From Candidatus Aminicenantaceae bacterium (lineage in GTDB: Bacteria > Acidobacteriota > Aminicenantia > Aminicenantales > Aminicenantaceae): a stretch of DNA of 64,000 nucleotides. Shown in pieces: positions 6,064 through 27,137 of this stretch; positions within the stretch are counted from its first letter, which is position 1, and the number at the start of each line of letters is the position of its first letter. Location: contig JAZFSR010000121.1 of assembly GCA_036446295.1 (NCBI GenBank), positions 4,427-68,426 of the forward strand. The letters run 5' to 3'. Both the position numbers and the translations under genes were made by a program. Below the pieces are notes generated by a model that did not search any database, was not told where the DNA came from, and worked only from the letters and a program-made list of their open reading frames with translations.

Positions 6064-6847
6064 CGATAATCATCTCTCTCCGTATAGAAAGGGCCTTGCC
6101 CGTTTGGGCATCCACCGTGATAAAAACACTCGATAAAATAGCGCCTTCTTTTGACGGTTCAAACCGCTGTGACCGGGAGGTCAGGAAACGGGCTACACCC
6201 GCTTCTTTTTTGATCCCGATGACCGCATTATATCCTCCCACCATGCCCACATCCGAGATGTAGGCGGTGCCCTGCGGCAGGATCCTTTCGTCGGCTGTGG
6301 TCACATGCGTGTGCGTACCAATGACAGCCGAAACTCGGCCGTCCAGATACCATCCCAAGGATTGTTTTTCGGAGGTGGCCTCGGCATGAATGTCTACAAG
6401 GATGACAGGAGTGGCGGCCTTCAAGACCTCCAACTCTTTGTCCACCGTCCGGAATGGGCAGTCGATGGGCTCCATAAAAACGCGTCCCTGGATGCTCAGC
6501 ACTCCCACTTTGGCTCCGCTGTCCGCTTCAAAAACACATGCCCCACGGCCGGGATTGACCGGAGGGTAATTGGCCGGCCGCAGGAGATGGGGTTCTTTGT
6601 CTAAAATCTCGAGCACTTCACGCTTATCCCAGATGTGATTTCCTGAGGTCAAAACATCTACCCGCACAAAGAGCTCACGGGCAATCTTCATCGTCATCCC
6701 CGCGCCTCCGGCGGCATTTTCCCCGTTGGCTATAATAACTGTCGGAGACAGTCTCTCGATAAGTGGGGGCAGATGTTTTTCGAGGACCTTCCGGCCGGGC
6801 CGGCCGATGATATCTCCTAAAAAAAGGATGCTTATTTTATCGGGCAT
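6044..6847 (-). CDS. ymdB: TIGR00282/YmdB-like metallophosphoesterase (2',3'-cyclic nucleotide phosphodiesterase family)
   Basis: 267 aa with GDIIGRPGR and GNHxWD calcineurin-like motifs. It sits immediately downstream of rny, as in Bacillus. Confidence 0.85.
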
Positions 6848-8408
6848 ATTCGACAGCCCTCATTTCGCGGATAACGGTAACCTTGATTTTCCCAGGATAT
6901 TCCATCTCATCCTTGATTTTCTGTGCAATCTCTTTAGCGGCCAGCGCTGCTTTTTCATCCGAGATCTTCTTGCTTTCAACAATAATTCTGATCTCCCGGC
7001 CGGCCTGAAGCGCGAAGGCTTTGGCTACGCCCTCATAGGCATTGGCGATCGCTTCCAGCTTCTCCAGCCTCTTGATATAGGCCTCGAGCAGTTCCCGGCG
7101 TGCGCCGGGACGGGCCGCCGAAAGCGTGTCCGCAGACTGGACAAGGACGGCCTCTACAGAAGGAAAGTCTACATCTCTATGGTGGGAAGCGATGGCGCCC
7201 ACCACACGTTCGGTCTCCCCGTACTTTCGGGTCAATTGCACACTCAGCTCTGTATGCGTACCTTCGATCTCCCGATCGACGGCCTTTCCGATATCATGGA
7301 GAAGGCCGGCGCGAATCGCGACGTTGACATCCACTCCCAGCTCTGTCGCCATGATTCCGGATAAAAAAGCCACTTCTTTGGAGTGTTGGAGAACATTCTG
7401 GCCGTAGCTCGTTCTGTATTTGAGCCGTCCGAGAAGTTTGACCAGCTCGGGATGAAGATTCTGGACCCTGAGCTCCAACATCACAGTCTCTCCCTCCTGT
7501 CTAATCTTCTCTTCCAGCTCTTTTTTGACCGATTCGACGATATCCTCAATACGGGCAGGATGGATCCGTCCGTCTTTAACAAGTTTTTCAATGGCCAGAC
7601 GGGCCATTTCACGACGGATGGGATCAAAGCTCGAAAGGATGACGGCTTCTGGTGTATCATCGACAATGATATCCACACCTGTGGCCAATTCCAGGGCCCG
7701 GATGTTCCGGCCTTCACGGCCGATAATGCGTCCCTTCATATCGTCAGACGGCAGATCGACAACAGACACCGTTGTCTCCACAACATGCTCGGCGGCAGAA
7801 CGCTGGATGGCCTGGCTGATGATATCATGTGCCAGGGCCTCCCCCTTTTCTCTTGTCTCTTCCTCGATCGTGCGTACAATCTGAATGGCTTCGAGCTTGG
7901 CTTCGTCCTCTATTTTTTTCTTGAGCTCATTCTTGGCCTCTTCCTGTGTGATTTTGGCTATGCGCTCCAGTTCTTCTATCGCTTTCTGGTTGAGCTCGTT
8001 TAATTTTGTCTCTTTGGTATCGATCTCCCGGGAACGTTCACTGAGACGATGTTCTTTGTTCGAGAATTCCCGCTCTTTTCTTTCCAATCCTTGAAATTTC
8101 TGTTCCAGGTTCTCTTCTTTTTTGACCAGTCGTCTTTCCGTTTCATTAAACTTGTGCCGCCGGTCACGGGTTTGACGTTCAAAATCCGATTTGAGATTGA
8201 TGAGTTTTTCTTTTGTCTCAATTTCGACTTCTCGTCTTTTTTTATCGGCCTCTTCCACGGCGTTGTCGACAATTGACTTGGATTCCTGTTTGGCCTTTAA
8301 AATAGAGTTGGCTCCTGATTTCTTCTGGACGAGGATAAAAATCAGGACTCCTGACAATAAAGCAATAATAATAATCGCTATCAGTAATGTGATGTTCACA
8401 ACAAGCAC
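6837..8408 (-). CDS. rny: Ribonuclease Y
   Basis: 523 aa with an N-terminal TM helix, a long coiled-coil, a KH domain and an HD domain (GLLHDIGK). GTG start preceded by AAGGAGG. Confidence 0.92.
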
Positions 8409-8496
8409 CTCCTTAAGGAGGTCAAAGGAGATGAAAGGGAGGAGGGCTTATATGTTTTTTTTTCCTTTGGCTCTAACCGTCGAGATTTCCCTCATA

Positions 8497-8859
8497 CTAT
8501 TTATTCAATTCTGAACCGATTTCCTCGGTTTTTTTCGATACGGCCCCTTTGGGCTTTTCCGTATTCTTATCTCTGTGAATGAATGCCTCCAAACTTTCAA
8601 CGTCATCTTCCATATGCCCTAATACTTCATTCAGTTGATCCAGCTTCTTCTGGCTTAAAAAGTATTCATCTGCAATGTTCAAGGCCGCCAAGATTGCAAT
8701 CTTGAACATATCCATGGATTTTGATTTAACCGCAATTTCTTGCATTTTTTGATCAACATGAGAAGTAAGATGACCTATGTATTTTTCATCCTCTTCTCCT
8801 TTGACTCTAATTTTATATTTTTGTCCGTAAATTTCGATTTCAATAACTTTATCAATCAT
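8497..8859 (-). CDS. zapA: Cell division protein ZapA
   Basis: 120 aa. The pattern V.I.I.G..Y.I...... then AILAALNIADE matches the ZapA fold. Confidence 0.7.
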   Translation of the reverse strand: MIDKVIEIEIYGQKYKIRVKGEEDEKYIGHLTSHVDQKMQEIAVKSKSMDMFKIAILAALNIADEYFLSQKKLDQLNEVLGHMEDDVESLEAFIHRDKNTEKPKGAVSKKTEEIGSELNK

Positions 8860-9116
8860 AGTCCTATCTGATCTATCTGACTGATAATGGTCTCAATTTT
8901 TTCCTTCATTTCCTCCTTTTCATTCTTATAATCTTTTAAAATACTGTCATAATTTTCGAATTTTCTTGCCTGCTCTTCCAACTCTTTTTTTGCTGCCCTG
9001 AGATCTTTGACTTGATTCTTGAGCTGTCCGTTTTCGCTGAGAAGCTTGTTGATATAGTCAACAATCTGGGAAACTTTTCCTCCTAGAATTTTAATTCTTT
9101 CTATTTCACTTGTCAA
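8856..9116 (-). CDS. Coiled-coil protein, ZapB-like
   Basis: 86 aa, entirely heptad-like coiled coil, overlapping the zapA start and pheT end. Confidence 0.4.
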   Translation of the reverse strand: MTSEIERIKILGGKVSQIVDYINKLLSENGQLKNQVKDLRAAKKELEEQARKFENYDSILKDYKNEKEEMKEKIETIISQIDQIGL

Positions 9117-11166
9117 TTTTTCCCCCTTTTCTCAGTTCGATTTTAAATTTAGCATTCAGCATTTTAACGGCCTTGGTGATGGAATTCTCAACGTCCTCTG
9201 CCAAGAGTGTCCGCTGAGGGTGCCGGAACACAAAACGCAGCGAAAGGCTCACTTTCCTCTTGGGAATAGAGGCTCCCGTAAAACGGTCCTGGAGATCGAA
9301 TGTCTCCAGAAAGGGAAGTTGAAGCTCACGGATGTCTTTTTGGATGTCCTGGTAATTGACTTCGCGGCCCACGATAAAAGTGATATCACGCGTGATAGTT
9401 GGGAATTTGCCGATCGGGGTAAAATGAAACGCTTTCGGCTGCTTTTCAAACAGTACATCCAGGTTGATTTCAGCGGCCCAGGCTGGATCCTTGAGGAAAT
9501 AGGCCTTGAGGATGTCTTGATGAATACGCCCGAGAGAACCTATCCGGAGTCCCTTATAGTATATACAGATGGAATGTCCCGGTTCAAAGCAGGGGTTTTT
9601 CGATTCTTCAAAAGAATACGCCGAGTACCCAAGATTCGACAGCAGGGCTTCACAGGCCCCCTTTAGATGAAAAAAGTCTTCCTTTTCGGTCTTGGCCTGC
9701 CAGTGTTGAGGTTCATTATTTCCAGTAACCGCCATGCCCAGCATCGTGTCTTCATGTGTCACTTCTTCTTCCCAGGAGTAGGCCTTCCCAATTTCAAAAA
9801 GGCACACACCTTCCGCTCCACGGTTGATGTTCCAGATAATGTTCTCCAAAAGTCCTCCCATGAGTGTAGTCCTCATGATAGAGGCTTTCTCGGAGATGGG
9901 ATTTCGAATTTCGACAGGCACGAGGCCAACCTTGAAGAGCGCATCTTTCTCCGGATCCACAAAGCTGAAATTGACGGCTTCATCAAGGCCGTGATGAAAG
10001 AGGGTCTGTCGGATCTTGGAGATGAAACTTTTCTTTACATCGCGGGTGTACTCGAGAACATTATAAGAAGGAACCATCGAGGGAATATTATCGTAGCCAT
10101 AAAACCTGGCGACCTCTTCGATCAAGTCGGCTTCTCTTTCGATATCCACACGGAAAAAAGGCACCTTGACCTGCCAGATGCCCTGCTGCTGATTTTCCAG
10201 GCTGAAACCCAGATTGGTCAGAATATTCGTTATAAATTCGTCAGCAATGCCGACACCTATCAGTTCTTTCACTCTGTGGCTCCGGAGCAGGACAGTCCTG
10301 GCTTTTTTGGGCTTGGGATAGACATCGATTATGCCTTGAGTAGCGGTCCCCCCAAACTGCATCATTAAGGAGGCGGCCATCAATGCGGCTTTGGGCGGAA
10401 ACGATACATCCGCACCCCTTTCAAAACGGTAGGACGCGTCTGTCTGGATCCCGGCTTTTTTGCCGGTCTTACGGACAGACACCGGATCGAAGCAAGCGCT
10501 CTCGATAAACACATCCCGGGTGTCTTCGGTCACTGCGGAGTTTTCTCCACCGATCACTCCGGCCAGTGCCACAGGATTCTTTTCGTCAGCAATCACCATC
10601 ATATCCGTTGTGAGGAATAAATCCTCCCCTTCCAGGGTTCTCAGTTTTTCGCCCTTGTTGGCTTTTCGGACAATAATCTTCCCGCCTGAGATCTTGGCCA
10701 GATCGAACGCATGGATGGGATGGGCCGTGGCAAAGAGGACATAGTTGGTGATATCGACAACATTGTTGATGGATTTAAGACCCATGGCCGAGATCCTCTC
10801 CTTCAACCAGTCGGGAGACGGCCCGACTTTGACGTCTTTGACAATGATTCCGGAATACCTGGGACAGAGATCTTCTTCATAAATTTCAATGTCTATAAGA
10901 TCGGCTGTCTTGGCCTCGTTTTCGACCAACGGCCAGTTCTGCTCCTTGACCGGCTTGCCCACTATGGCGGCCAATTCACGGGCCACTCCAAGGTGACCGT
11001 TGGAGTCCGGGCGGTTGGCATATGTTTCGAGTTCCAGGATGACATCATTTTTCCGTTTATCGACATCATCGACCAGCAAACCGATGTTGTTGAGACTGTC
11101 AATCAATTGGGGAATAGAGAGGTCTATATCAACAAATTCTTTGAGCCATTCAATGCTTATTTTCAT
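9106..11166 (-). CDS. pheT: Phenylalanine--tRNA ligase beta subunit (short form lacking EMAP/tRNA-binding insertion)
   Basis: 686 aa with B3/4, B5 and anticodon-binding regions recognisable; directly downstream of pheS. Confidence 0.92.
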   Translation of the reverse strand: MKISIEWLKEFVDIDLSIPQLIDSLNNIGLLVDDVDKRKNDVILELETYANRPDSNGHLGVARELAAIVGKPVKEQNWPLVENEAKTADLIDIEIYEEDLCPRYSGIIVKDVKVGPSPDWLKERISAMGLKSINNVVDITNYVLFATAHPIHAFDLAKISGGKIIVRKANKGEKLRTLEGEDLFLTTDMMVIADEKNPVALAGVIGGENSAVTEDTRDVFIESACFDPVSVRKTGKKAGIQTDASYRFERGADVSFPPKAALMAASLMMQFGGTATQGIIDVYPKPKKARTVLLRSHRVKELIGVGIADEFITNILTNLGFSLENQQQGIWQVKVPFFRVDIEREADLIEEVARFYGYDNIPSMVPSYNVLEYTRDVKKSFISKIRQTLFHHGLDEAVNFSFVDPEKDALFKVGLVPVEIRNPISEKASIMRTTLMGGLLENIIWNINRGAEGVCLFEIGKAYSWEEEVTHEDTMLGMAVTGNNEPQHWQAKTEKEDFFHLKGACEALLSNLGYSAYSFEESKNPCFEPGHSICIYYKGLRIGSLGRIHQDILKAYFLKDPAWAAEINLDVLFEKQPKAFHFTPIGKFPTITRDITFIVGREVNYQDIQKDIRELQLPFLETFDLQDRFTGASIPKRKVSLSLRFVFRHPQRTLLAEDVENSITKAVKMLNAKFKIELRKGGKIDK

Positions 11167-12197
11167 TTTCGTGAAAACTGCCTTATAAACCGCAAATCAT
11201 TTTCGTAGAAATACCGCATGTCGGGAATTTGATAGGAAAACATCGCTGTGCGATCCACACCCAAGCCGAATGCAAAACCCGAATACCGTTCAGGATCAAT
11301 ATTGACATTTTTAAAGACCTGGGGATCAACCATACCCGCACCAAGAATTTCGATCCATCCGCCGCCTCCGCAAACTCTACATTTTTCGTCCTTGCGGCCG
11401 CAAACCGTACATTCGATATCGACTTCGGCCGAAGGTTCGGTAAACGGGAAAAAACTCGGGCGGAAACGGATCTCGATTTTGTCATGAAAGAGGGCCTTTA
11501 GAAAGTATTCCAGCGTGCCCTTCAGATGGGCCATTGTAATACCGTAATCGACAACTAAGCCTTCGACCTGATAAAACATGGGCAGGTGTGTCGGATCGGG
11601 GGACTCCTTCCTGTACACTTTTCCGGGAGTGATGATGCGGATAGGGGGCTTTTTTTTCTGCATGACCCGAATCTGGACGGGAGACGTATGTGTGCGGAGC
11701 AGAATGTCGTCATTGATATAGAGCGTGTCCCAATCGTCACGGGCAGGATGGTGCGGGGGGAAATTCAAAGCTTCAAAGTTAAAGTAGTCCGTTTCGATCT
11801 CGGGGCCGCTTTCGATCGTGAAACCCATACTCTGAAAAATGCTCTCGATTCTCTCCTGAAAAACAACGAGAGGATGTGGAGAACCCCAGTACCGGGATTT
11901 TCCCGGGAGTGTCAGGTCGAATTTGGCGTCTTTAGTCTTTGGGGCACTCAACGCTGCCTTCAGGCTGTCCAGTTTTTCCTGCACATCTGTCTTGAATTGG
12001 TTGATCAGAAAGCCCGCTTCCGGCTTGTCCTCTGGCTTGACCTTTTTCAACTCTTCAAACAGGCCGGCCATGTGGCCTCTTTTCCGGCTCAAATAGAGGT
12101 GGTGGAGCTTTTTGATCTCGATCTCGGTTTTAACAGCGGCAGCGTCCTTTTTAAAGCCTCTCCCGAGATCTCTGATCTTGTCTTTCAGTTTTTTCAT
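11163..12197 (-). CDS. pheS: Phenylalanine--tRNA ligase alpha subunit
   Basis: 344 aa with class II aaRS motifs (FRPSFFPFTEPS, GxGxDR). Confidence 0.95.
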   Translation of the reverse strand: MKKLKDKIRDLGRGFKKDAAAVKTEIEIKKLHHLYLSRKRGHMAGLFEELKKVKPEDKPEAGFLINQFKTDVQEKLDSLKAALSAPKTKDAKFDLTLPGKSRYWGSPHPLVVFQERIESIFQSMGFTIESGPEIETDYFNFEALNFPPHHPARDDWDTLYINDDILLRTHTSPVQIRVMQKKKPPIRIITPGKVYRKESPDPTHLPMFYQVEGLVVDYGITMAHLKGTLEYFLKALFHDKIEIRFRPSFFPFTEPSAEVDIECTVCGRKDEKCRVCGGGGWIEILGAGMVDPQVFKNVNIDPERYSGFAFGLGVDRTAMFSYQIPDMRYFYENDLRFIRQFSRK

Positions 12198-12214
12198 TCT
12201 TTTTGTTTAGGCGC

Positions 12215-12571
12215 TCAGGCCGCGGTCTCCTTGACTTTATGGACGATGTGCTCGAATGTCTGCGGTGACTGGACAGCCAGATCCGCAAGGATCTTCCTGT
12301 CGATATCGATGTTGAGTGTTTTAAGTCCGTGAATAAACCGGCTGTAGGACAGGCCGTTCGATTCGGAGGCTGCCTTGATCCGGATGATCCAGAGGCGCCT
12401 GAAGTCCCTCTTGCGGGTCCGACGGTCTCTGTAAGCATACTGCAGCGCTCGTTCGACAGCTTCCTTGGCCGTGCGGTAGTTGCTGTTGCGCGCTCCATAG
12501 TATCCTTTCGCAAGTTTTAAAATTTTTGTTCGTCTTTGTCTTTTTTTTGTTCCTCTTGTTACTCTGGGCAT
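12215..12571 (-). CDS. rplT: 50S ribosomal protein L20
   Basis: 118 aa, [26 protein letters not shown]... Confidence 0.95.
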
Positions 12572-17200: not shown

Positions 17201-17343
17201 GAATTATTCATAAAAACTGCCTCCACCATCATTTCTCTCCAATGATATCAACTTTATAGCATGATTTTAGTAAGATCTCGAACATTTCTTTGTTTGTTGG
17301 CTAGTTTATACTAAATGTCGGCATTTTTTACCCCAAGGGGGCT
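17201..17343 (-). promoter_or_regulatory. Conserved 143-nt upstream leader (repeat B copy 1) with embedded sigma70-like promoter TTGGGG-17-TAGTAT
   Basis: About 75% identical to 31954-32096, in the same position relative to a different minus-strand gene. Read on the minus strand the putative -35/-10 are at 17331-17336 and 17308-17313. Confidence 0.5.
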
Positions 17344-17443
17344 GAGATGCGCCCCTCCATTGAAAAATTGGCAGGGGTATATTATACTAACAATTCCATT
17401 TTGGAACTTATATGCTTATAAAAAAACAAATAACGGAGTTTTA

Positions 17444-18751
17444 ATGAAAAAGAATGTCATCATCATGGGCGCCGCAGGAAGGGACTTTCATAACTTCAAC
17501 ACCTTCTTGAGAGACAACCAAAACTATCAGGTCGTTGCGTTCACGGCCACACAAATTCCGGACATAGATGGCCGGAAATATCCCGCCGAACTGGCGGGCC
17601 GGTTGTACCCGGAGGGAATCCCTATTTTCTCTGAAGATGACCTGACTAAGCTGATCAAATCCATGGAAGTCACAGAAGTCTTTTTTTCCTACAGTGATAC
17701 ATCCAATGACTATGTCATGCATAAGTCCGCCGATGTTATGGCCGCCGGAGCCAGTTTCACACTCCTCGGCCCCAGAGAGACGATGATAGCCAGCCGTAAG
17801 CCACTGATCTCTGTCTGCGCAGTGCGAACGGGAGTCGGCAAAAGCCAGACCAGCCGTAAAATTGCTCTGATGCTCAAGAACAAAGGCCATCGGGTTGTAG
17901 TCATCCGGCATCCCATGCCCTATGGGGATCTGGTCAAACAAAAAGTCCAGCGCTTTGCCAATTACGACGACATGATCAAACACAAATGCACGATCGAAGA
18001 GATGGAGGAGTACGAACCCCATATCAGCAACGGCATCATCGTCTATGCCGGGGTGGACTACGGCGCCATCCTGGAAGAAGCCGAAAAGGAAGCCGATATC
18101 ATCCTCTGGGACGGCGGAAACAATGACTACCCGTTTTACAGGGCGAATCTGGAAATCGTCCTCATCGACCCCCACCGCCCGGGACACGAACTTCAGTATT
18201 ACCCTGGAGAAGTGAATTTCAAAAGAGCACAGGTCCTCATCATCAACAAGATGGATACGGCCGAGCAAGGCAACATCGACCGCGTTGTCGAAAATATTAA
18301 GAGGTACAATCCCGAAGCCACAATCATCAGGGCCAATTCCCCCATCAGTGTTCCGGACGGCAAAGACATCGAGGGAAAGACCGTCCTGGTCGTTGAAGAC
18401 GGCCCAACTCTGACACACGGAGGCATGGCTTTCGGAGCCGGCATTGTGGCGGCCAAAAAATATGGTGCCGGCCGCATCGTCGATCCACGCCCCTATGCTT
18501 TAGGAAGCATTAAAAAGACATTTGAAAAATATACGCACCTCGACCGCGTCCTCCCGGCCATGGGATATGGACAGGAACAAATCGACGAACTCACCGAAAC
18601 CATCAACCGCACCGAATGTGACCTCGTTATCGGAGCGACCCCTATCGATCTGAGCCGCCTGATCCAAACTAACAAAAGAATTCTCCGCGTCTCTTACGAT
18701 TTGGAAGAAATCGGGTCTCCCAACCTTCAGGAGGTCCTCAAGGATTTCTGA
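17444..18751 (+). CDS. P-loop NTPase resembling cyclic 2,3-diphosphoglycerate synthetase (CPGS) family
   Basis: 436 aa from the MKKNVIIMGAAG Met. Walker A-like CAVRTGVGKSQTS; size and layout are consistent with the CPGS family. The assignment is from memory of the family, not a search. Confidence 0.55.
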   Translation: MKKNVIIMGAAGRDFHNFNTFLRDNQNYQVVAFTATQIPDIDGRKYPAELAGRLYPEGIPIFSEDDLTKLIKSMEVTEVFFSYSDTSNDYVMHKSADVMAAGASFTLLGPRETMIASRKPLISVCAVRTGVGKSQTSRKIALMLKNKGHRVVVIRHPMPYGDLVKQKVQRFANYDDMIKHKCTIEEMEEYEPHISNGIIVYAGVDYGAILEEAEKEADIILWDGGNNDYPFYRANLEIVLIDPHRPGHELQYYPGEVNFKRAQVLIINKMDTAEQGNIDRVVENIKRYNPEATIIRANSPISVPDGKDIEGKTVLVVEDGPTLTHGGMAFGAGIVAAKKYGAGRIVDPRPYALGSIKKTFEKYTHLDRVLPAMGYGQEQIDELTETINRTECDLVIGATPIDLSRLIQTNKRILRVSYDLEEIGSPNLQEVLKDF

Positions 18752-19701
18752 TGAAACGCAAGATCGCCCTCATAGCTTTTGGAGGAAACGCACTCCTTCC
18801 CAAGCCAAAACAAGGACTCCAAGGCGAGCAGATCAAACTTGCCGAAAAGGCCGCCCGTTTGATGATTCATGTCGTGCAGAGAGGATATGACCTCATCATC
18901 GTTCACGGCAACGGGCCCCAGGTCGGAAATCTGCTCATCCAGATGGAGGAATCCATCAATAAGGTTCCCCCTTTCTCTCTCGACATCTGCAATGCGATGA
19001 CCGAGGGAAGCATAGGATTTATGCTGGAGAAAGCCGTCATCAACGAACTCCGTAAAAAATCGGTGGATAAGGAGGTGGCCACCCTGATCACTCAGGTTAT
19101 TGTAGATAAGGAAGATCCGGCCTTCATGGCCCCGTCCAAACCCGTCGGCCCCTTCTACTCGAAATACCGGGCCAAGATGCTCATGCGGGAAAAAAAATGG
19201 ATTATGAAGGAAGATGCAGGAAGGGGTTTCCGGAAAGTCGTGCCATCCCCCAGGCCGATTGACATCGTTCCCAAACACGTAATGAGCGAACTCGTCGGCT
19301 CGGGAAAGATCGTCATCGCCGGCGGAGGAGGAGGCATTCCGGTCATCATCAACGGCAAGGGACTCTTCCAGGGAGTCGAAGCGGTCATCGACAAGGATTA
19401 TACATCCGGCCTCATCGCTCGAGAGACTCGAACCGATCTCTTCATCATCCTAACCACTGTCCCTCAGGTGTATCTGAATTTCGGCACACCAAAGGAAAAG
19501 CCCATCCTTGAGATGACTGTGGACGAGGCCAAAGAACAACTGGCCATGGGACAGTTTCCTCGGGGATCCATGGGTCCAAAAATAGAAGCCGCCGTCGACT
19601 ACATCGAAAGAGGAGGAAAAGAAGTCCTGATCACCTCCGTCAGCCACTTGAAGGCGGCCATGATAAACCGGTCAGGCACACGAATTACAGGTTCGAACTA
19701 G
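18751..19701 (+). CDS. arcC: Carbamate kinase
   Basis: 316 aa, MKRKIALIAFGGNALL…HGNGPQVGNLL…, the amino-acid kinase fold typical of carbamate kinase. Confidence 0.9.
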   Translation: MKRKIALIAFGGNALLPKPKQGLQGEQIKLAEKAARLMIHVVQRGYDLIIVHGNGPQVGNLLIQMEESINKVPPFSLDICNAMTEGSIGFMLEKAVINELRKKSVDKEVATLITQVIVDKEDPAFMAPSKPVGPFYSKYRAKMLMREKKWIMKEDAGRGFRKVVPSPRPIDIVPKHVMSELVGSGKIVIAGGGGGIPVIINGKGLFQGVEAVIDKDYTSGLIARETRTDLFIILTTVPQVYLNFGTPKEKPILEMTVDEAKEQLAMGQFPRGSMGPKIEAAVDYIERGGKEVLITSVSHLKAAMINRSGTRITGSN

Positions 19702-19709
19702 GAGAAAAG

Positions 19710-20630
19710 ATGGATAACTTTCTTTCAATTCATGATTTGAGCATTTATGAATTCCATGAACTGTTGGACCTTTCCAGTCAAGTTAAAGCTCAACCACAGC
19801 GCTATAGAGAAAAGCTATCGAATACGGTTTTGGCCATGATTTTCGAAAAACCGTCTCTTCGGACACGAATGACCTTTCAAGTCGGCATGCTCCAACTGGG
19901 CGGCCAGGCCATTTATCTCGGCCCCCTTGATATCCGGATGGGCCAGAGAGAAAGCACGTACGACATAGGAAAAAACCTCGAACGATGGATCGATTTAATC
20001 ATGATCCGCACATTTGATCATCAGATCGCCAAGGATCTGGCCAAATACACACGTGTTCCGGTCATCAACGCCTTGACCGATTCCCTGCATCCCTGTCAGG
20101 GGATGGCCGACTTTCTGACTATCAGGGAAAAGCATTATGATCTGACCGACCTTTGCCTCGCCTACGTCGGAGACGGGAACAATGTCTGTCACAGCCTGCT
20201 CTTTGCGGCAGCCAAAGCAGGATCTCAGATGAAGGTGGCCACTCCTCCAGGATACGAACCCGATCCCGACATTGTCAAACAGGCCGAGGAGGACGGAAAG
20301 GACACAGGCTTCAGCGTCGAGGTCTATAATGATCCGGCTGAGGCAGTTCAGGGAGCCCATGCCGTCTATACCGACACCTGGACATCGATGGGACAGGAAG
20401 ACGAAAAAAAAGAACGACTCCGGATCTTTGCACCCTTCCAAGTCAACAAAGATCTGATGGCCAAGGCTCACCCCAAAGCGATATTCATGCACTGTCTTCC
20501 CGCACACAGAGGCGAAGAAGTCACAGATGAGGTTATCGACTCGACTCAATCGGTTGTTTTCGATCAGGCCGAAAACAGGCTTCATTTCCAAAAAGCCATT
20601 ATGTTATTATTAATGGGGATAAAAAAATAG
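19710..20630 (+). CDS. argF: Ornithine carbamoyltransferase
   Basis: 306 aa with S-L-R-T-R carbamoyl-P motif, HPCQ and HCLP motifs of OTCase. Confidence 0.88.
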   Translation: MDNFLSIHDLSIYEFHELLDLSSQVKAQPQRYREKLSNTVLAMIFEKPSLRTRMTFQVGMLQLGGQAIYLGPLDIRMGQRESTYDIGKNLERWIDLIMIRTFDHQIAKDLAKYTRVPVINALTDSLHPCQGMADFLTIREKHYDLTDLCLAYVGDGNNVCHSLLFAAAKAGSQMKVATPPGYEPDPDIVKQAEEDGKDTGFSVEVYNDPAEAVQGAHAVYTDTWTSMGQEDEKKERLRIFAPFQVNKDLMAKAHPKAIFMHCLPAHRGEEVTDEVIDSTQSVVFDQAENRLHFQKAIMLLLMGIKK

Positions 20631-20632
20631 AA

Positions 20633-22831
20633 ATGGACCAAGAAAACGAAATTACGCAAATTAACAACGACGATCTTTCCTTTTTAGAAAAGGAACTGGC
20701 CAAAACCAAAACCCCTGTCGTACAGGAAGAACTGGTCACTAAAACCGCCTTCAAAAAGACTGCAATCCAGCGGTGCCTGGAAGCCAAAAAATACAATTCC
20801 GATTGTTTGTATGAAATCGGCGACCTCGTGTTTAAGGAATATGATGAACCGCTGACCATCAGCTCTAAAGGTACCGAACACTTTAAAGGTTCCGTGGTGC
20901 TTAAGGTAGTCAACAAATTTTCTCTTCCTGATTTCAACTGTGAAATGCTGGAAGTGGATTACTTGGGTGGGGGAGTATTCCGGAAGCATATCGACTACAT
21001 GAAAAAAACTCGTACGCAGGTTCTCCTTCCGAGCAACTGCGACGGAAAGGCTCTCTCTCCAAAAATATTACAGAAAGACGAAGACCCTCGGTTAAACGAA
21101 CTTCCCATGACAGATAAAGACCTGAGGAAACTGGAGAAAAATCTCAAATCGGCACTTTTAAAATCCGATAAATTTTTTAACTGGAATGAATTCTGGCAGC
21201 TGGAAGCAAACCGGATCGCTATTACAGACAAAGAGATTAAAAAAATTGAAAAAAAATTTATGGAGACCCCCCTCTCCACGGCCACGACAGATTTGATCCT
21301 TCAACTCTTTGATATCGATAAAAAAAATGAGCTGTTTGCCATTCACGCCCTCAGTCTCAATTTTGTTCTGGAAAAGAACTACAAGAAAAAATTCGTCTAT
21401 ATTTCTCCGGAAGATTGGGGGAAATGGTTCTCCAAGGAGACTCTCGATTCGTTTCTGGCCAATCTTCCCATCACAAAATCCAAGGCCAAGGTTCCACGTC
21501 TGGATGAAACCAGTCATGAATCCCTCTCTAATGCCCCGGAAATGCCATTAAAAGTCTATCTAACATGGAGAGAAGTTCTCTCCGGCTGCATTAAAATCCC
21601 CAAGAGTATGAACCGGCATTTTTCAAAGTCCAGAGAATACATCTTTACGGATTCAGACAGCGGCAAAGACTATGTCGTCTACTACTACCCCTCATCCAAT
21701 ATCTTTTATGGGCTGCAGGAATTCTACGAAAAAAACAATGTTCCCCAGGGAGCCAGTCTCACTATCGAGAAAAAGGACCTCACTTCATGCCATTTCAGCT
21801 TGAAAAAGTCAAAAAAGAAGCTCGAAGTACCCCACCTCACATATGACCCTAAAAAGGATGAGATCATGGACACCGGGGAAGAGGCATTCACTTTTTCCCT
21901 TCCTAACAAGATCATCTTTTTGGAACGTGAAACTCTGACCACTCTCTTGACTCTTTACAGACAGCGGAAAAATGTTGACCTTAAAGACCTGCTCATCCTC
22001 ATCTTTAAAAATTTTGGATTGGAAGGGCAGGCCCTCACTATCCACTATCAACGCGCTTTTCATCTTGTCGATTTTATCAAACGCACCACTATCGAAGATG
22101 TGGAGAATGTTCTTCTCAACTCTCCTGAATTTACACAATCGGAAAAGAGCAAGGGTCTTTTTCTCTATCCGCTTGAACTAGAAGAAGTATCCCCGGATGA
22201 GACAGGGGTGGAAGAACATATAGAAAAGCCCGTTGACGAAAAGATCGCCGCCATGGTCGAAGAAATAGAGGAAGAGATTCTCCCTGAAATCGGGACTGTC
22301 GGCGAGGTAGCCATCCCAGAAGGATCCAAGATTGTCGAAGTCATCGAGCCCGAAAAACCGGCTCCCGTCAAAGTTAAACCTCCCCCAGTAAAGCCTGACC
22401 GACCTCTACGCCGTAAAAAAGCTGTCGACATTGTAACCCCAGAAGAAAAAGTCCCCTTAGAGCCTTCTAAAAAAGAAAAACCGGCCAAAAAGAAAAAGGC
22501 CCGATTGAAGGAAGAGCAGGAAAGAGTTCCACGACGCAGACGCGGAGGGAAACGCTTCATCGAAGAACGGATCGAACTGGAAGAATCGGAACACGAAGCC
22601 CTGATCGCCCGCAAAGCAGAAGAATCGGAACAGGAAAGCATCATCCTGCCTGAGAAACCCAAAAAAGACGAAGCAAAAGAAATGGGCAAGAAAGAAGAAC
22701 TTGCGGAGTATGTCTCCGAAACCCCGGCGTCGTCTCTCTTTGCCGACAAACTCAAGTCAGCCCTGGGGAAGACACCGCCCAAAGCTTCTGACAAAGGGAA
22801 AAAATCTAAAAAAAGAAGAAAACAAACCTGA
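20633..22831 (+). CDS. Hypothetical protein, 732 aa, with extremely K/E/R-rich C-terminal ~200 aa
   Basis: Uninterrupted ORF starting 2 nt after the argF stop. No family recognised. The tail reads …KPAKKKKARLKEEQERVPRRRRGGKRF…KGKKSKKRRKQT. Visibly A-rich codon usage. Confidence 0.7.
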   Translation: MDQENEITQINNDDLSFLEKELAKTKTPVVQEELVTKTAFKKTAIQRCLEAKKYNSDCLYEIGDLVFKEYDEPLTISSKGTEHFKGSVVLKVVNKFSLPDFNCEMLEVDYLGGGVFRKHIDYMKKTRTQVLLPSNCDGKALSPKILQKDEDPRLNELPMTDKDLRKLEKNLKSALLKSDKFFNWNEFWQLEANRIAITDKEIKKIEKKFMETPLSTATTDLILQLFDIDKKNELFAIHALSLNFVLEKNYKKKFVYISPEDWGKWFSKETLDSFLANLPITKSKAKVPRLDETSHESLSNAPEMPLKVYLTWREVLSGCIKIPKSMNRHFSKSREYIFTDSDSGKDYVVYYYPSSNIFYGLQEFYEKNNVPQGASLTIEKKDLTSCHFSLKKSKKKLEVPHLTYDPKKDEIMDTGEEAFTFSLPNKIIFLERETLTTLLTLYRQRKNVDLKDLLILIFKNFGLEGQALTIHYQRAFHLVDFIKRTTIEDVENVLLNSPEFTQSEKSKGLFLYPLELEEVSPDETGVEEHIEKPVDEKIAAMVEEIEEEILPEIGTVGEVAIPEGSKIVEVIEPEKPAPVKVKPPPVKPDRPLRRKKAVDIVTPEEKVPLEPSKKEKPAKKKKARLKEEQERVPRRRRGGKRFIEERIELEESEHEALIARKAEESEQESIILPEKPKKDEAKEMGKKEELAEYVSETPASSLFADKLKSALGKTPPKASDKGKKSKKRRKQT

Positions 22832-22853
22832 GACCGAAAAATCGGTCGCCCGA

Positions 22854-24008
22854 ATGAGCACTTGGCAAAAAACAGCTGATGTCGCCATCCTCGGAGGAGG
22901 CATCCTCGGCGTAAGCGCCGCATTTTTTCTTTCGCGCCATAAGCCGTTCCGGATCGTGCTGCTTGAAAAAGATGGCCTCGCCCAGGCCACGACCGGATTG
23001 AGCGTCGGAGGCATTCGGCAGCAGTTTTCTCATCCCTCAAATATTCTCCTTTCCCAAAACACTCTCGCTTTTTTTGATTTTTTCCAGAAGGAATACGGCA
23101 TCCCTCTAAGCTTCCACAAGGTAGGTTATCTCTTTCTCGCCCAAAAGGAGGACACTTGGAAAGATTTTCTCTCGAGTGTCCGGACCCAGAAGCGATACAA
23201 TGTCCCCGTAGAGGCACTTCTTCCTGGCGAAATCCAGCGGCGGTGGCCCTATCTGAATGTTGCGGATCTCAAAGGAGGCACATTCTGCCCGGAGGACGGC
23301 TATGCAGATCCCTACGAAGTAACGATGGCCATGGCAAATATCGCACGGCAGAAGGGGGTAGACATCTTTGAACAGACGGAAGTGACGGGAGTTCTTGTGG
23401 ACCGGGGAAAGGTGAGCGGCGTGCAAACAAGCCGGGGTGATCTTTCCGTTCCCATTGTAATCAATGCAGCCGGGCCGTGGAGCGGAAACATAGGGCGGAT
23501 GGCCGGGTTGAACTATCCCGTTTTTCCCTTCAGGCGCCAGGTGTTTGTAACCAAGGCGTTTCAAGAGTTAGCTAAACCCATCCCCTTTATTTTGGATTTT
23601 GATTCCCTCTTTTATTTTCGGGAGGAGGGACCGGCTATCCTCATGGGAAAAAGTGATCCGGAGGAACCTTCAAGCTTCAACATCCATGTGGACAGGGGGT
23701 TCATGGAAACCGTCATAGAGGCGGCATGCCATAGAGTCCCCGTTCTCGGCAGCGCGGAAATTGCGAAGGGCTGGGGAGGGCTGTACACCATTACGCCAGA
23801 TGGAAATCCGATCATCGGAGCCGACCCCAACGTCAAAGGATTCTACAATGCCATCGGATTTTCAGGGCATGGATTCCAGCACGGCCCTGCCGTCGGACAG
23901 ATTCTCTCCGATCTCATAGTACACGGCTCTACAGCCTTGGATATGACCCCATTCTTTTCAGAACGATTCACTCAAGGACCACTTCTTGGGGAAAAACGTG
24001 TTGTGTAA
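22854..24008 (+). CDS. FAD-dependent oxidoreductase (DAO/sarcosine-oxidase-beta-like)
   Basis: N-terminal dinucleotide fold ADVAILGGGILGVSAAFFL and C-terminal DAO-family region. The internal Met at 22854 was chosen; the ORF-track start would overlap the upstream gene. Confidence 0.8.
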   Translation: MSTWQKTADVAILGGGILGVSAAFFLSRHKPFRIVLLEKDGLAQATTGLSVGGIRQQFSHPSNILLSQNTLAFFDFFQKEYGIPLSFHKVGYLFLAQKEDTWKDFLSSVRTQKRYNVPVEALLPGEIQRRWPYLNVADLKGGTFCPEDGYADPYEVTMAMANIARQKGVDIFEQTEVTGVLVDRGKVSGVQTSRGDLSVPIVINAAGPWSGNIGRMAGLNYPVFPFRRQVFVTKAFQELAKPIPFILDFDSLFYFREEGPAILMGKSDPEEPSSFNIHVDRGFMETVIEAACHRVPVLGSAEIAKGWGGLYTITPDGNPIIGADPNVKGFYNAIGFSGHGFQHGPAVGQILSDLIVHGSTALDMTPFFSERFTQGPLLGEKRVV

Positions 24009-24022
24009 GGAGGACCATACTT

Positions 24023-25015
24023 GTGAAGATAAAAATCCTTAATCAAGAAAACGTCATGGAGGCCATCACTATCAAGGAGGCCATATCGGCTGTGAAGGAT
24101 GCCTTTATCCAGCTTTCCGCACAGGAAGCGGTTGTGCCGATGCGAAGCCAGATCCAGGTAGCCAAAGACAAAGGGATCTCCCTCTTTATGCCGGCTTATC
24201 TGGAAAAAAGCCATTCTCTCGGGGCTAAAATCGTCTCTGTGTTTCCAGACAATACCTCTAAGAACCTGCCCACCATTTTTGCTGTGGTTATCGTTCTGGA
24301 TGCCGATACCGGCCGTCCCCGGGCCATTCTGGACGGCACTTTTTTGACGGCACTGCGCACGGGGGCGGCATCTGGGGTAGCGACAGATTTGCTTGCGAAA
24401 AAAGACGCTTCGACAGCCGCTGTCTTTGGCGCAGGAATACAAGGCCGGACTCAAATGGAGGCCGTATGTACAGTCAGATCCATAGACAAAATTTGGATCT
24501 ATGATCCCCGTGCCTCTGCGGCGGACGCATATGTCCGAGATTTAAAAGAAAAGGGCCCCCCTTTTCCACAGGACATATCCGTTGCCTCCTCCCCAGAACA
24601 GGCGGCTGGCCAAGCCGATATCATCTGTACGGCCACAACCTCTTCCGTACCTGTTTTTAACGATAACCATATCAAACCGGGCGTCCACATCAACGGCGTC
24701 GGCTCTTACACTCCGGAAATGCAGGAGATTCCTTCAGCAACCGTAGTGAGGGCTAAAGTGTTTGTAGATTCTGTATCCTCCAGCTGGGAAGAGGCCGGAG
24801 ATCTGATTATTCCCCTTCAAAAGGGGCTCATCGACAAAGCCCATGTCCGCGGAGAGATCGGAGAACTGGCGTTGGGACAAATTCGGGGAAGGGACAAGGA
24901 GGATGACATCACGTTCTTTAAATCCGTAGGCGTGGCCGTGCAGGATATTTCTGTTGCACAAGTCATTCTCCAAACCGCCGAAAAGCTCGGATTGGGACTG
25001 GATGTCGACTTATAA
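24023..25015 (+). CDS. Ornithine cyclodeaminase/mu-crystallin family protein (candidate Pyr2C reductase or OCD)
   Basis: 330 aa with a Rossmann region GAGIQGRTQ and the OCD/mu-crystallin pattern throughout. Confidence 0.85.
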   Translation: MKIKILNQENVMEAITIKEAISAVKDAFIQLSAQEAVVPMRSQIQVAKDKGISLFMPAYLEKSHSLGAKIVSVFPDNTSKNLPTIFAVVIVLDADTGRPRAILDGTFLTALRTGAASGVATDLLAKKDASTAAVFGAGIQGRTQMEAVCTVRSIDKIWIYDPRASAADAYVRDLKEKGPPFPQDISVASSPEQAAGQADIICTATTSSVPVFNDNHIKPGVHINGVGSYTPEMQEIPSATVVRAKVFVDSVSSSWEEAGDLIIPLQKGLIDKAHVRGEIGELALGQIRGRDKEDDITFFKSVGVAVQDISVAQVILQTAEKLGLGLDVDL

Positions 25016-25029
25016 AAAGGAGGCACAGT

Positions 25030-26058
25030 ATGACTCAAACTTGGGAACCCCCTTCAGACTGGCTGCGGATTACAGCTATAGATGCACACACTGCCGGTGA
25101 ACCACTGCGGATCATCACCGGCGGATTTCCCCCCATCCCCGGGACAACGATTCTGGCCAAACGGCGGTACGTCCGGGAACACTTTGACCATCTGCGGAAA
25201 GCCCTCATGTGGGAACCACGAGGGCATGCCGATATGTACGGCTGTCTCCTCCTTGAACCCACAACTGAAGACGGAACCCTGAGCGTACTTTTTCTCCACA
25301 ATCTGGGCTACAGTTCCATGTGCGGTCACGGTATCATCGGCCTGTCCACCGTGGTTATGGAGACCGGTCTTTTCCATGTGGACAAAACTCAACCCAAGCT
25401 CCTTATCGACTCGCCCGCGGGGAGGATTACGGCGCGGGTTCATTGGGACAAAAACCGCATCCGGAGTACGACTTTCCAGAATGTCCCCTCATTTGTCCAT
25501 TCTCTCGATCAAACAATCACGGTCCCGGGTATTGGGGATGTCCGCTATGACATCGCATATGGAGGAGCTTATTATGCATTTGTAAAGGCGGAAGATTTTG
25601 GATTCAACCTTGTCCCTGATGAGTTTTCCACCCTTGTCGAAACCGGAAGACGCATCAAAAAGGCCGTTAAAAATCAAGTGGACATCCGGCATCCTTTTGA
25701 AGAAGATCTAGGCTTCCTCTACGGGACAATATTTGTCGGTCCCCCTCACGACAAGGCTCATCACAGCCGGAATGTGTGTGTTTTTGCCGATGGTGAAGTC
25801 GACCGGAGCCCGACGGGAACCGGAGTCAGTGCACGGGCCGCCCTTCATTTTGCCCGGAACGACATCACAGAGGGTGAGCCTTTTGTTATCGAAAGCCTTC
25901 TGGGAACATGTTTTACAGGACGTGTGGTCAACACCACGTCTTTTGGCAGCTATCCTGCCATTATCCCTGAAGTAACGGGGAGCGCTTTCATCGTGGGGCG
26001 CAGCGAATGGCTCATCGATCCCAATGACCCCCTCCGCCACGGTTTTTTCCTCCGCTAG
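25030..26058 (+). CDS. Proline racemase family protein, Cys/Thr type (predicted trans-3-hydroxy-L-proline dehydratase-like)
   Basis: 342 aa. First catalytic motif SMCGHG retains Cys. The second motif reads DRSPTGTG, so the second catalytic Cys is replaced by Thr. Confidence 0.85.
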   Translation: MTQTWEPPSDWLRITAIDAHTAGEPLRIITGGFPPIPGTTILAKRRYVREHFDHLRKALMWEPRGHADMYGCLLLEPTTEDGTLSVLFLHNLGYSSMCGHGIIGLSTVVMETGLFHVDKTQPKLLIDSPAGRITARVHWDKNRIRSTTFQNVPSFVHSLDQTITVPGIGDVRYDIAYGGAYYAFVKAEDFGFNLVPDEFSTLVETGRRIKKAVKNQVDIRHPFEEDLGFLYGTIFVGPPHDKAHHSRNVCVFADGEVDRSPTGTGVSARAALHFARNDITEGEPFVIESLLGTCFTGRVVNTTSFGSYPAIIPEVTGSAFIVGRSEWLIDPNDPLRHGFFLR

Positions 26059-27137
26059 AGGATCTCGCGTGTGGGACCTCTGCGCCGGGTGACTTTCATC
26101 TGGTCGAGAAGCTCGAGGAGAGGAATGGCGTACTTCCGGGAAAGGCCGGTCATCTCTTTGAATTGGCCAACAGTCAGCTCTTTTCCTTCTAGATTCCGGA
26201 TTTTGGCCACCAGCTCCTCCAGCCACTGAGAATGAAGGATAAATCCGTCTTCCCCCTGGACAATCTTTCTCCTTTCGGCCAGAAGAGAGAGAAGGTTTTG
26301 CAGCCGATGGGCGGAAAGATTGAAGCGTTTCTGGAAGTCTTCCATAGGGACAGAATGAAGCTTCCCCTCAAGACACATCTCTTCCAGCCTGTCAACGAGG
26401 CCTTCCTCCTCTGACGTCAGAGCCAGTTCAAAATCCATCACCGACAACCGTTTTTCGACCTCTTTAATTTGTTTCTCACGAATAAGATGTTTTAACGCGA
26501 GAAACCAGATTCGATCGGGGAGATCAAACTTCTGCTTCACTTCATTATTCAATACGCCCGGCTCATCCGGATGGGTCTCATGATAGCGCCGTATGAACTG
26601 GGTAATTTTCTCTTTGAGGAACTCAAAACTTGCATGAGAAAGCAAAAAAAGCGGGGAAAACGAGAGGATCCGGATCTGTCCTTCAGCTTCCAGCTTCTGA
26701 CAGAGAGGAAGCAGCGTTTTCCTTGTGATAGGAGCAAACTCCAGGATCTCTTTTTCCCTCAAACCCATAATTCCCTTATCCCGGGCGAGAACGGCTAACA
26801 TTCCGATCTTATCACCCCTGAGCTGGGGGAGAAGATTCGCCCTCTTTTTCGCGTCCTTCCCTATCAGTTTTTGATCGGCGGGATAGAGGACTTTTCCTGA
26901 ACCCAACACCTTCTCCGATCCCGGACTCAGGACATCAAAGGAATAGCTCCATTTAACAGTCACCGGTTTTGAGAGGGATACGGAAATGAATGAATCTTTC
27001 AAATCGTGGATACCGGTCTCATAGAAAGAAAATGAGCCCGGCACTTTTTCTTTTTTCAGCACAAATGTGGCATCGTGTGCATGGGCCTTCTTGGGCAAAA
27101 CAATATCGACAACCGCATCAAAAATAGAAGTTTTCAT
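26055..27137 (-). CDS. SelB C-terminal (winged-helix SECIS-binding) domain protein lacking the GTPase domain
   Basis: 360 aa. The C-terminus …GQFKEMTGLSRKYAIPLLELLDQMKVTRRRGPTREIL matches the terminal winged helix of SelB. Only 30 nt separate it from rnr upstream, so there is no room for EF-Tu-like domains I/II. Confidence 0.7.
   Translation of the reverse strand: MKTSIFDAVVDIVLPKKAHAHDATFVLKKEKVPGSFSFYETGIHDLKDSFISVSLSKPVTVKWSYSFDVLSPGSEKVLGSGKVLYPADQKLIGKDAKKRANLLPQLRGDKIGMLAVLARDKGIMGLREKEILEFAPITRKTLLPLCQKLEAEGQIRILSFSPLFLLSHASFEFLKEKITQFIRRYHETHPDEPGVLNNEVKQKFDLPDRIWFLALKHLIREKQIKEVEKRLSVMDFELALTSEEEGLVDRLEEMCLEGKLHSVPMEDFQKRFNLSAHRLQNLLSLLAERRKIVQGEDGFILHSQWLEELVAKIRNLEGKELTVGQFKEMTGLSRKYAIPLLELLDQMKVTRRRGPTREIL

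Follow-up and report, generated by a model that had tools for sequence, protein, structure and literature searches.

In the classical arcABC(D) system, the hydrolytic ArcA acts first, ornithine carbamoyltransferase (OTC) and carbamate kinase (CK) carry out the two downstream steps with ATP gained from carbamoyl phosphate, and ArcD is an antiporter. A different first step was described in Thermococcus kodakarensis, where the arginine synthetase ArcE (TK2200) catalyses the reaction Arg + ADP + Pi <-> citrulline + NH3 + ATP (Michimori, Yokooji, Atomi, PNAS 2024, PMC11032458). ArcE, OTC and CK together constitute the "arginine synthetase pathway", with a yield of 2 ATP for each arginine (PMC11032458). 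In Thermococcales, the order in which this pathway was found, OTC and CK work with ArcE in arginine breakdown. ArcE homologues were previously annotated as hypothetical proteins or putative GTPases, ArcE has low similarity to cyclic 2,3-diphosphoglycerate (cDPG) synthase, and LpxK (4EHY) was superimposed on the predicted TK2200 structure as a structural relative (PMC11032458). In some genomes arcE homologues lie near arcB and arcC, and arcE complements the absence of arcA; arcE-bearing taxa include Caldisericum, Caldithrix, Bacillus, Virgibacillus, Koribacter and Synechocystis (PMC11032458). A further described system is the trans-3-hydroxy-L-proline (T3LHyp)/proline cluster LhpH/LhpI/ProDH of T. 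litoralis (Watanabe et al. 2014, PMC4141209). This report concerns a seven-gene cluster of a Candidatus Aminicenantaceae bacterium in which an arginine core of the T. kodakarensis type appears to be joined to genes resembling the T. litoralis module.

The window is the whole 64-kb stretch of DNA that was read, and all coordinates are positions within it. Seven plus-strand open reading frames (ORFs), G1 to G7, occupy 17444–26058 exactly where they had been predicted. Their order is G1-CK-OTC-orphan(G4)-DAO(G5)-OCD(G6)-ProR(G7), where OCD is the ornithine cyclodeaminase family and ProR the proline racemase family, and not the one implied by the heading of the original prediction. The intergenic gaps are, in order, −1, 8, 2, 22, 14 and 14 nucleotides (nt). 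The tight junctions claimed earlier are borne out, with gaps of up to 22 nt, but the G1/G2 junction is a TGATG in which the G2 start overlaps the arcE stop by 1 nt, rather than an ATGA. It is considered quite probable that the region is a composite operon, made up of an arginine synthetase core, the lineage-specific G4 and an optional G5–G7 module centred on pyrroline-2-carboxylate (Pyr2C) and proline. Its features are listed below, with protein lengths in amino acids (aa).

17444–18751, plus strand: G1, 435 aa, probable arcE
18751–19701, plus strand: G2, 316 aa, arcC, carbamate kinase
19710–20630, plus strand: G3, 306 aa, arcB/argF, ornithine carbamoyltransferase of the short type
20633–22831, plus strand: G4, 732 aa, no family match
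21545–21907, plus strand: B3-like pseudobarrel of G4, putatively DNA-binding, approximately residues 305–425 (limits from DSSP strands 306–422)
22854–24008, plus strand: G5, 384 aa, DAO-family FAD oxidoreductase
24023–25015, plus strand: G6, 330 aa, GTG start, OCD/mu-crystallin family
25030–26058, plus strand: G7, 342 aa, proline-racemase superfamily, Cys98/Thr262 type
17360–17388, plus strand: putative operon promoter, TTGAAA-17-TATACT with an extended TATTATACT −10 region

The locus shares with the T. kodakarensis pathway the same three enzyme families and the lack of a nearby arcA. The T. kodakarensis genes are dispersed, with ArcB encoded by TK0871 and ArcC by TK2158 (PMC11032458), whereas here arcE-arcC-arcB form a tight bacterial operon. 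Its Aminicenantes host belongs to a candidate phylum absent from the arcE taxon list of PMC11032458, and the operon additionally holds a conserved gene for a 732-aa protein as well as a proline module. Compared with classical arcABC(D), OTC and CK would perform the same two downstream steps, but neither ArcA nor ArcD is found in this window. The first step would instead fall to a P-loop enzyme that is not homologous to ArcA and forms ATP, so that 2 ATP would be gained and not 1.

A probable ArcE in an arginine core

G1 encodes a P-loop protein with a Walker A motif (RTGVGKS, residues 128–134), a Walker B motif (WDGGNND, 222–228) and an NKMD motif (268–271). Its start at 17444 agrees with full-length homologues of 434–436 aa. 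Profile searches, which had been suggested as a check, matched G1 to no family in Pfam or NCBIfam, release 20 of the latter having no model for the G1 family, and the family has no PDB entry. A PDB sequence search related cDPG synthetase (cDPGS) to G1 with E = 0.0018. With an AlphaFold (AF2) model of G1 (pLDDT 87), the top Foldseek match was cDPGS over the full length (E = 1e-16, 17% identity), LpxK 4ehx/4ehy occupied ranks 3–5 (E ~3e-7 to 8e-7), and weaker matches were to DUF1611, MeaB and HypB. The cDPGS-like nature of G1 that had been proposed therefore stands as a distant relationship.

The G1 family is large, with more than 8000 clusters scored in the homologue search and at least 585 relatives found in a scan using one genome per species. 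The best 80 of these 585 or more relatives are at least 59% identical to G1 and are spread over many phyla of bacteria and archaea. In a comparison of 84 sequences, 121 of the 435 G1 positions are at least 97% identical. Homologues bear the JGI label "predicted GTPase", and the family shares with ArcE this P-loop annotation history, the distant cDPGS/LpxK relation and the tendency to lie close to arcB and arcC. Taxa listed as carrying arcE provide the link to the characterised enzyme. The Caldisericum exile (AZM16c01) protein is 60% identical to G1 over 428 residues without a gap, and its gene lies 2 nt upstream of OTC in a complete genome. Proteins of Virgibacillus, Bacillus and a Calditrichaeota metagenome-assembled genome (MAG) are 63–64% identical to G1. 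Orthology traced through these taxa presumes one such homologue per genome. By this transitive homology to TK2200, G1 is probably ArcE, an ATP-forming arginine deiminase.

A homologue search seeded with an archaeal relative (L030, labelled Aciduliprofundum) returned no Thermococcales protein. In the literature, nothing was found for COG2403, sll0572 is mentioned only as a "potential GTPase", and nothing useful was found linking Aminicenantes with CK. Other roles for G1 were considered and dropped in favour of the published ArcE activity. These were a G3E-type metallochaperone GTPase, a DTBS-like partner activating carbamate or bicarbonate and thereby making CK a carbamoyl-phosphate synthetase, and a nucleotide-energy enzyme tied to sucCD/ndk.

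The NCBI name "cyclic 2,3-diphosphoglycerate synthase" is carried by the window protein (MEE8377396.1) and by many homologues. With cDPGS also its top full-length structural match, G1 might be taken for an enzyme making the thermoprotectant cDPG, unrelated to its arginine neighbours. G1 and the M. fervidus enzyme (8ork/8oru) share a two-domain layout in which an N-terminal domain accompanies a P-loop domain like that of LpxK. However, where the cDPGS P-loop motif GTGKRVGKT has Lys-Arg, G1 has Thr129-Gly130 in the alignment; the literature gives K145/R146 as residues of the M. fervidus enzyme that contact 2,3-DPG. As this Lys-Arg is lost, G1 has NKMD where cDPGS has ITLAD, and cDPG is reported only from hyperthermophilic methanogens, the label is very probably wrong. 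The low identity and the sequence E value given above also speak against it, as do the differing taxonomy and gene neighbourhood, the G1 family showing strong linkage to arcC, arcB, argS and genes of ornithine fermentation. Synthesis of cDPG by G1 is considered extremely improbable.

The two genes that follow G1 are confirmed as encoding CK and OTC, both above their NCBIfam cutoffs. G2 scores 359.4 bits against TIGR00746 (carbamate kinase; cutoff 358.25), and its best PDB match is the P. furiosus carbamate kinase 1e19 (292 bits). G3 scores 421.3 bits against NF001986 (OTC; cutoff 306) and 397.9 bits against TIGR00658 (cutoff 280.85), with P. furiosus OTC (1a1s/1pvv) as its best PDB matches (333 bits). 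In the proposed pathway, ArcE (G1) would convert L-arginine, ADP and Pi to citrulline, NH3 and ATP. OTC (G3) would then phosphorolyse citrulline to ornithine and carbamoyl phosphate, and CK (G2) would use carbamoyl phosphate and ADP to form ATP and carbamate. The core would thus yield 2 ATP per arginine, as well as a supply of ornithine and carbamoyl phosphate.

The original prediction had noted the lack of arginine deiminase and arcD, and among the genes called or scanned within the 64-kb window neither an arcA nor an arcD family was reported. It had also held that the cDPGS-like protein belongs to no described version of these pathways, which no longer applies as G1 fits ArcE of the arginine synthetase pathway (PMC11032458). 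Because of this fit, the missing deiminase would be G1 itself, accounting for the lack of an arginine deiminase gene, and the likely substrate would be arginine and not citrulline.

Gene neighbourhoods in other lineages support an arginine-related role, and the earlier question of whether the cDPGS-like gene tracks arcC/argF can be answered positively. Of 43 non-Aminicenantes species loci with flanks of at least 2.5 kb at each end, 17 carry CK and/or OTC no further than 2.5 kb from the G1-type gene, mostly directly downstream. This linkage spans Neomarinimicrobiota, Calditrichaeota, WOR-3, Acidobacteriota, Bacteroidota, Nitrospina and Caldiserica. In six loci (L016, L017, L040, L048, L069, L070), arcE-arcC is followed by sucC, with an aldehyde dehydrogenase upstream in all except L017, sucD after sucC except in the short contig L069, and ndk in L016, L017 and L070. 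These loci are from Neomarinimicrobiota, Calditrichaeota, Zixiibacteriota, Nitrospina, Fidelibacterota and one unclassified bacterial MAG, and their arrangement looks like a substrate-level phosphorylation cluster. In some other lineages, ackA (acetate kinase) comes after arcC.

Other neighbours vary by lineage. In a Spirochaetota MAG (L019), the arcE homologue (5264–6559) is followed 9 nt downstream by 2,4-diaminopentanoate dehydrogenase (PF19328), a layout that ties ArcE to the oxidative fermentation of ornithine in this lineage. A Symbiobacterium MAG (L041) has two arcE paralogues, at 8001–9302 and 11208–12506, which are 2 kb apart and 61% and 58% identical to G1; an OTC gene lies directly upstream of the first. 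In five Chloroflexota loci, mostly Anaerolineae (L025, L037, L053, L057, L065), argS (arginyl-tRNA synthetase) is directly upstream of the arcE homologue, which may play another part there, perhaps in supplying arginine. Neither CK nor OTC is close by in these five loci, and a gene read by eye as Obg lies 3' of the arcE homologue in all of them except L065. Where CK and OTC are lacking, the genes flanking arcE are mostly uninformative singletons. The recurrent neighbours of the G1 family concern arginine, ornithine and substrate-level phosphorylation.

Tail genes, G4 and modularity

Pfam places G5 in DAO (E = 1e-75), G6 in the OCD/mu-crystallin domain family and G7 in Pro_racemase, in agreement with the families named in the original prediction. 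The catalytic pair of G7 is present as Cys98 in SSMCGHG and Thr262 in DRSPTGTG, and it is kept in the orthologues of L001, L007 and L089. The best PDB match of G7 is 6r76 (460 bits), labelled "Proline racemase" and taken here to be the T. litoralis T3LHyp dehydratase. A Cys-Thr pair is of the T3LHyp dehydratase type (PMC4141209). Judging from this pair and its closest solved relative, G7 is probably a T3LHyp dehydratase (LhpH).

The GTG start of G6 has an AAGGAGG site before it and is also supported by PDB alignments that begin at residues 2–5. Its best PDB match is the Pyr2C reductase 6t3e, presumably the T. litoralis enzyme, at 272 bits, compared with 109 bits for the P. putida OCD 1u7h. The triad of true OCD, proposed for cyclodeamination, is Glu56-Asp228-Lys232 in P. 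putida numbering, while the same positions are Leu-Val-Ala in TlLhpI and Arg-Asp-Lys in A. fulgidus AlaDH (PMC4141209). G6 has Leu-Tyr-Met at these positions and six full-length Aminicenantes orthologues have Leu-Tyr/Phe-Met. With the Glu-Asp-Lys triad absent, G6 is not a canonical cyclodeaminase, so a true OCD was rejected and the ornithine-to-proline step that had been attributed to it is unsupported. Instead, G6 is probably an LhpI-type Pyr2C reductase.

G5 has as its best PDB match 1y56_B (205 bits), labelled "sarcosine oxidase", which is presumably the L-proline dehydrogenase beta subunit of P. horikoshii. By similarity it appears closest to L-proline dehydrogenase beta and sarcosine oxidase beta. 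Together, G5–G7 would form an optional module centred on Pyr2C, in which G7 would dehydrate T3LHyp to Pyr2C, G6 would reduce Pyr2C to L-proline, and G5 would oxidise proline or a related secondary amine. The module resembles the T. litoralis cluster in the Cys/Thr pair of G7 and in the hydrophobic triad of G6, like that of TlLhpI. It differs in being bacterial, in having a beta-like flavoprotein only, without an alpha subunit, in the Leu-Tyr-Met of G6 compared with Leu-Val-Ala of LhpI, in the scores of G6 and G7 below the NCBIfam equivalog cutoffs, and in being joined to an arginine operon.

The original prediction was a route from citrulline, or another carbamoylated amine, to ornithine by OTC and CK with a gain of one ATP, and then to proline with G6 as a true OCD and the P-loop protein as an accessory. 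The ATP-yielding OTC and CK are indeed present and tightly linked, and the connection with proline also stands. G6 does belong to the OCD/mu-crystallin family, its orthologue is the sole tail gene after arcE-arcC-arcB-G4 in some relatives, and in T. kodakarensis ornithine from the pathway does feed proline synthesis. The parts that fail are citrulline as the substrate and the OCD step. If G1 is ArcE, citrulline would be made from arginine with an extra ATP, while the replaced triad in G6 and all six orthologues, and its much higher score to Pyr2C reductase than to P. putida OCD, argue against cyclodeamination. This route is quite unlikely.

G4 is the lineage-specific member of the operon. It has no match in Pfam, NCBIfam or PDB sequences, including a PDB profile search. 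A Pfam scan of ten distant representatives left nine without a match, the tenth matching only the unrelated Tubulin_2, HSP70 and HTH_18. There are 906 G4 homologues, and all those with a named source are from Aminicenantes or Aminicenantaceae. When residues 1–515 were searched against 1.84 billion representative proteins, only 94 clusters were found. The AF2 model is confident over these globular residues, and residues 516–732 form a disordered tail, acidic and then Lys/Pro-rich, with two conserved helices. The GC content of G4 is 0.443 and that of its third codon positions (GC3) 0.495, whereas the neighbouring genes are higher, at 0.49–0.535; the Lys/Glu-rich tail may contribute to the low value.

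Foldseek gave domain-level matches only for G4, namely plant B3, the LlaJI.R1 and BfiI DNA-recognition domains, and weak winged-helix matches. Match probability was 1.0 for the top B3 and LlaJI.R1 matches and 0.87 for BfiI. For B3/LlaJI.R1 the TM score on the target was 0.5–0.7 (B3 0.57–0.69) and the best E value 3e-3. Weak Pfam B3 (PF02362) matches occur in 10 of 30 G4 family members, all under the gathering score (best 18.6 bits, cutoff 30.1), and they map to residues ~310–392 in the eight members examined. G4 residues ~305–425 are thus like the B3/EcoRII-N/BfiI-C pseudobarrels in predicted fold and in these weak but consistent Pfam matches. Unlike them, G4 lacks a nuclease or plant-type partner domain and exceeds 700 aa, its added length including further helical and beta domains and a long disordered tail of acidic/basic character. 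G4 is probably not a pathway enzyme. The B3-like fold and charged tail of the model hint that this lineage-specific protein may bind nucleic acid, perhaps acting in regulation or as a nucleoid-associated protein.

The arrangement of the operon was compared over 17 G4-bearing Aminicenantes-type loci, found through G1 or independently through four G4 homologues. The block arcE-arcC-arcB-G4 is present in 15 of these, while in L008 and L013 G4 directly follows arcC. G4 thereby comes directly after arcE-arcC(-arcB) in all 17, and distant G4 copies, 25–27% identical, are likewise directly 3' of arcC in L013 and L035. In all Aminicenantes-type loci arcE adjoins arcC and/or arcB and the flanking synteny is kept. 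This arrangement is not due to chance. The genes after G4 are variable, as follows.

DAO-OCD-ProR tail: window, L001, L007
DAO-OCD tail: L006
OCD-ProR tail: L089/L090
OCD only: L002–L004
DAO only: L008
No tail: L009–L012, L091/L092

Outside the Aminicenantes-type lineage, no G5, G6 or G7 homologue was found beside arcE. In L090, a DDE transposase (7253–8929) lies between the ProR-family gene and a gene for SelB-type winged helices, which fits the 3' end of the operon as a site of gene turnover.

The variable tail and the lack of arcE linkage elsewhere show the seven genes to be a composite of modules rather than one obligatory pathway. The single pathway assumed earlier is also at odds with the separate description of the G5–G7 module (PMC4141209), which comes and goes among the relatives. 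A different one-pathway model would make all seven genes an arginine-to-proline route with G4 as its dedicated regulator. Here ArcE, ArcB and ArcC would give ornithine and 2 ATP, and G5 would oxidise the C-alpha of ornithine to 5-amino-2-oxopentanoate, which would cyclise spontaneously to Pyr2C for reduction to L-proline by G6. G5 and G6 would then be a two-enzyme "split" replacement for ornithine cyclodeaminase, and G4 a new bacterial non-nuclease B3-fold DNA-binding protein controlling the operon. Little probability is given to this model.

Weighing the composite reading and its direction

Several observations weigh against the preferred reading of an arginine synthetase core with G4 and an optional Pyr2C/proline module. 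The link of G1 to the characterised TK2200 is transitive and not direct, and G1 keeps a guanine-type NKxD motif, whereas TK2200 prefers ADP, with GDP giving 8.4% of the activity with ADP (PMC11032458). All NCBIfam matches of G6 are under cutoff, with Pyr2C reductase models at 272 bits compared with 322, and the best of G7, NF045511 (T3LHyp dehydratase), reaches 392 bits where the cutoff is 540. As both are below equivalog cutoffs, these are family-level assignments. The alpha subunit present in the P. horikoshii enzyme, and in heteromeric L-proline dehydrogenase (PDH1, alpha4beta4), has no gene in the cluster beside G5, for which reason the substrate of G5 is inferred. The relatives with G6 only (L002–L004) have no obvious Pyr2C source in the locus. 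For the core, the ArcE reaction is reversible with an equilibrium constant (Keq) of about 10, G3 is a short-type OTC with P. furiosus OTC as its closest solved relative, and the operon sits among housekeeping genes, all of which leaves room for a biosynthetic role.

Taken alone, the similarity of G2 and G3 to the P. furiosus pair could indicate an anabolic pair. Catabolic-labelled OTC entries score 161–174 bits against G3, and 1dxh, which is taken to be the catabolic P. aeruginosa OTC (ArcB), scores 204 bits. In a biosynthetic reverse of the core, CK or another source would supply carbamoyl phosphate, OTC would form citrulline, and ArcE would make arginine with ammonia and ATP, replacing argininosuccinate synthetase and lyase. 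The reversibility of ArcE allows this, and the T. kodakarensis papers report that arginine synthesis is supported in vivo when citrulline is supplied. The ArcE authors propose such a role where argG/argH are lacking (PMC11032458). The 333-bit match of G3 to P. furiosus OTC and the embedding of the operon among housekeeping genes, syntenic in the Aminicenantes-type loci examined, are also consistent with synthesis. However, the equilibrium favours deimination, there is translational coupling between arcE and arcC, and the ArcE authors regard CK as a catabolic signature (PMC11032458). In T. kodakarensis, CK is unable to supply enough carbamoyl phosphate in vivo (PMC13260591, Front Microbiol 2026), and the Aminicenantes-PK28 genome was reconstructed as that of a peptide and amino-acid fermenter (PMC4897734). 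A biosynthetic core is therefore considered unlikely.

The catabolic direction is favoured because of the arcE/arcC translational coupling, the use of OTC and CK with ArcE in Thermococcales, the CK limitation in PMC13260591 and the fermenter reconstruction in PMC4897734. CK and OTC are most likely the ATP-yielding catabolic half of an arginine route.

Transcription and surroundings of the operon

The putative promoter TTGAAA-17-TATACT matches at 10 of 12 positions and is the top sigma-70-type match of the region. A TTGxxx-17-TATACT element is kept before the G1 orthologues in 11 of 14 compared sequences, the window counted, at 55–90 nt 5' of the gene. The shared end/start coordinate of arcE and arcC also occurs in the relatives L001, L002 and L089. 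No sigma-70-like promoter was found in the stretch from G4 to the tail genes, either in the window or in six relatives, and terminator-like sites are not above chance (18 found, 15 expected). Given the tiny gaps, the one conserved promoter, the lack of another before the tail and the chance-level terminators, the seven window genes are probably one transcript, in line with the co-transcription proposed earlier. Rfam found no riboswitch or leader across the window, its sole match being a tRNA.

Upstream of arcE is a 16-nt direct repeat, with copies at 17299–17314 (GGCTAGTTTATACTAA) and 17375–17390 (GGGTATATTATACTAA), 76 nt apart. The second copy includes the conserved −10 element, and the first might serve as an operator or as another promoter. 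A perfect hairpin (GACCGA-AAAA-TCGGTC, 22832–22847) lies right after the G4 stop in the 22-nt G4/G5 gap. It has no T-run and could be a processing or attenuation site.

The surrounding 64 kb holds housekeeping genes, including pheST, thrS, infC, rplT, RNase R, dnaE, guaA, fab genes, polA and Rnf. A minus-strand gene at 26055–27137 converges on G7 with a 4-nt overlap of the stop, and its synteny is kept in most Aminicenantes-type loci examined. It encodes a 360-aa protein of SelB-type winged helices only (WHD_2nd_SelB, WHD_3rd_SelB), without a GTPase domain. The Rnf genes at 56154–61073 (rnfC, rnfD, rnfE/A-type and rnfB-like) are suggestive of anaerobic, ferredoxin-dependent energy metabolism.

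The core of the operon would thus correspond to the known two-ATP arginine pathway, and what novelty is left concerns G4 and the recurring attachment of a Pyr2C/proline module to this operon. The "cyclic 2,3-diphosphoglycerate synthase" or GTPase label, widespread on MAG proteins and present also in C. exile, most likely hides ArcE, and the NCBI naming of this ArcE-like family in bacteria and archaea is probably a widespread misannotation. As arcE-arcC-arcB is conserved in all the Aminicenantes-type loci examined, the operon offers a bacterial test case outside Thermococcales. In metabolic models of uncultured sediment fermenters, the ATP yield of arginine would rise from 1 to 2. The Aminicenantes operon is further distinguished by a 732-aa B3-like protein always wedged into it, and by a hydroxyproline/proline module that appears to have been repeatedly gained or lost at its 3' end.

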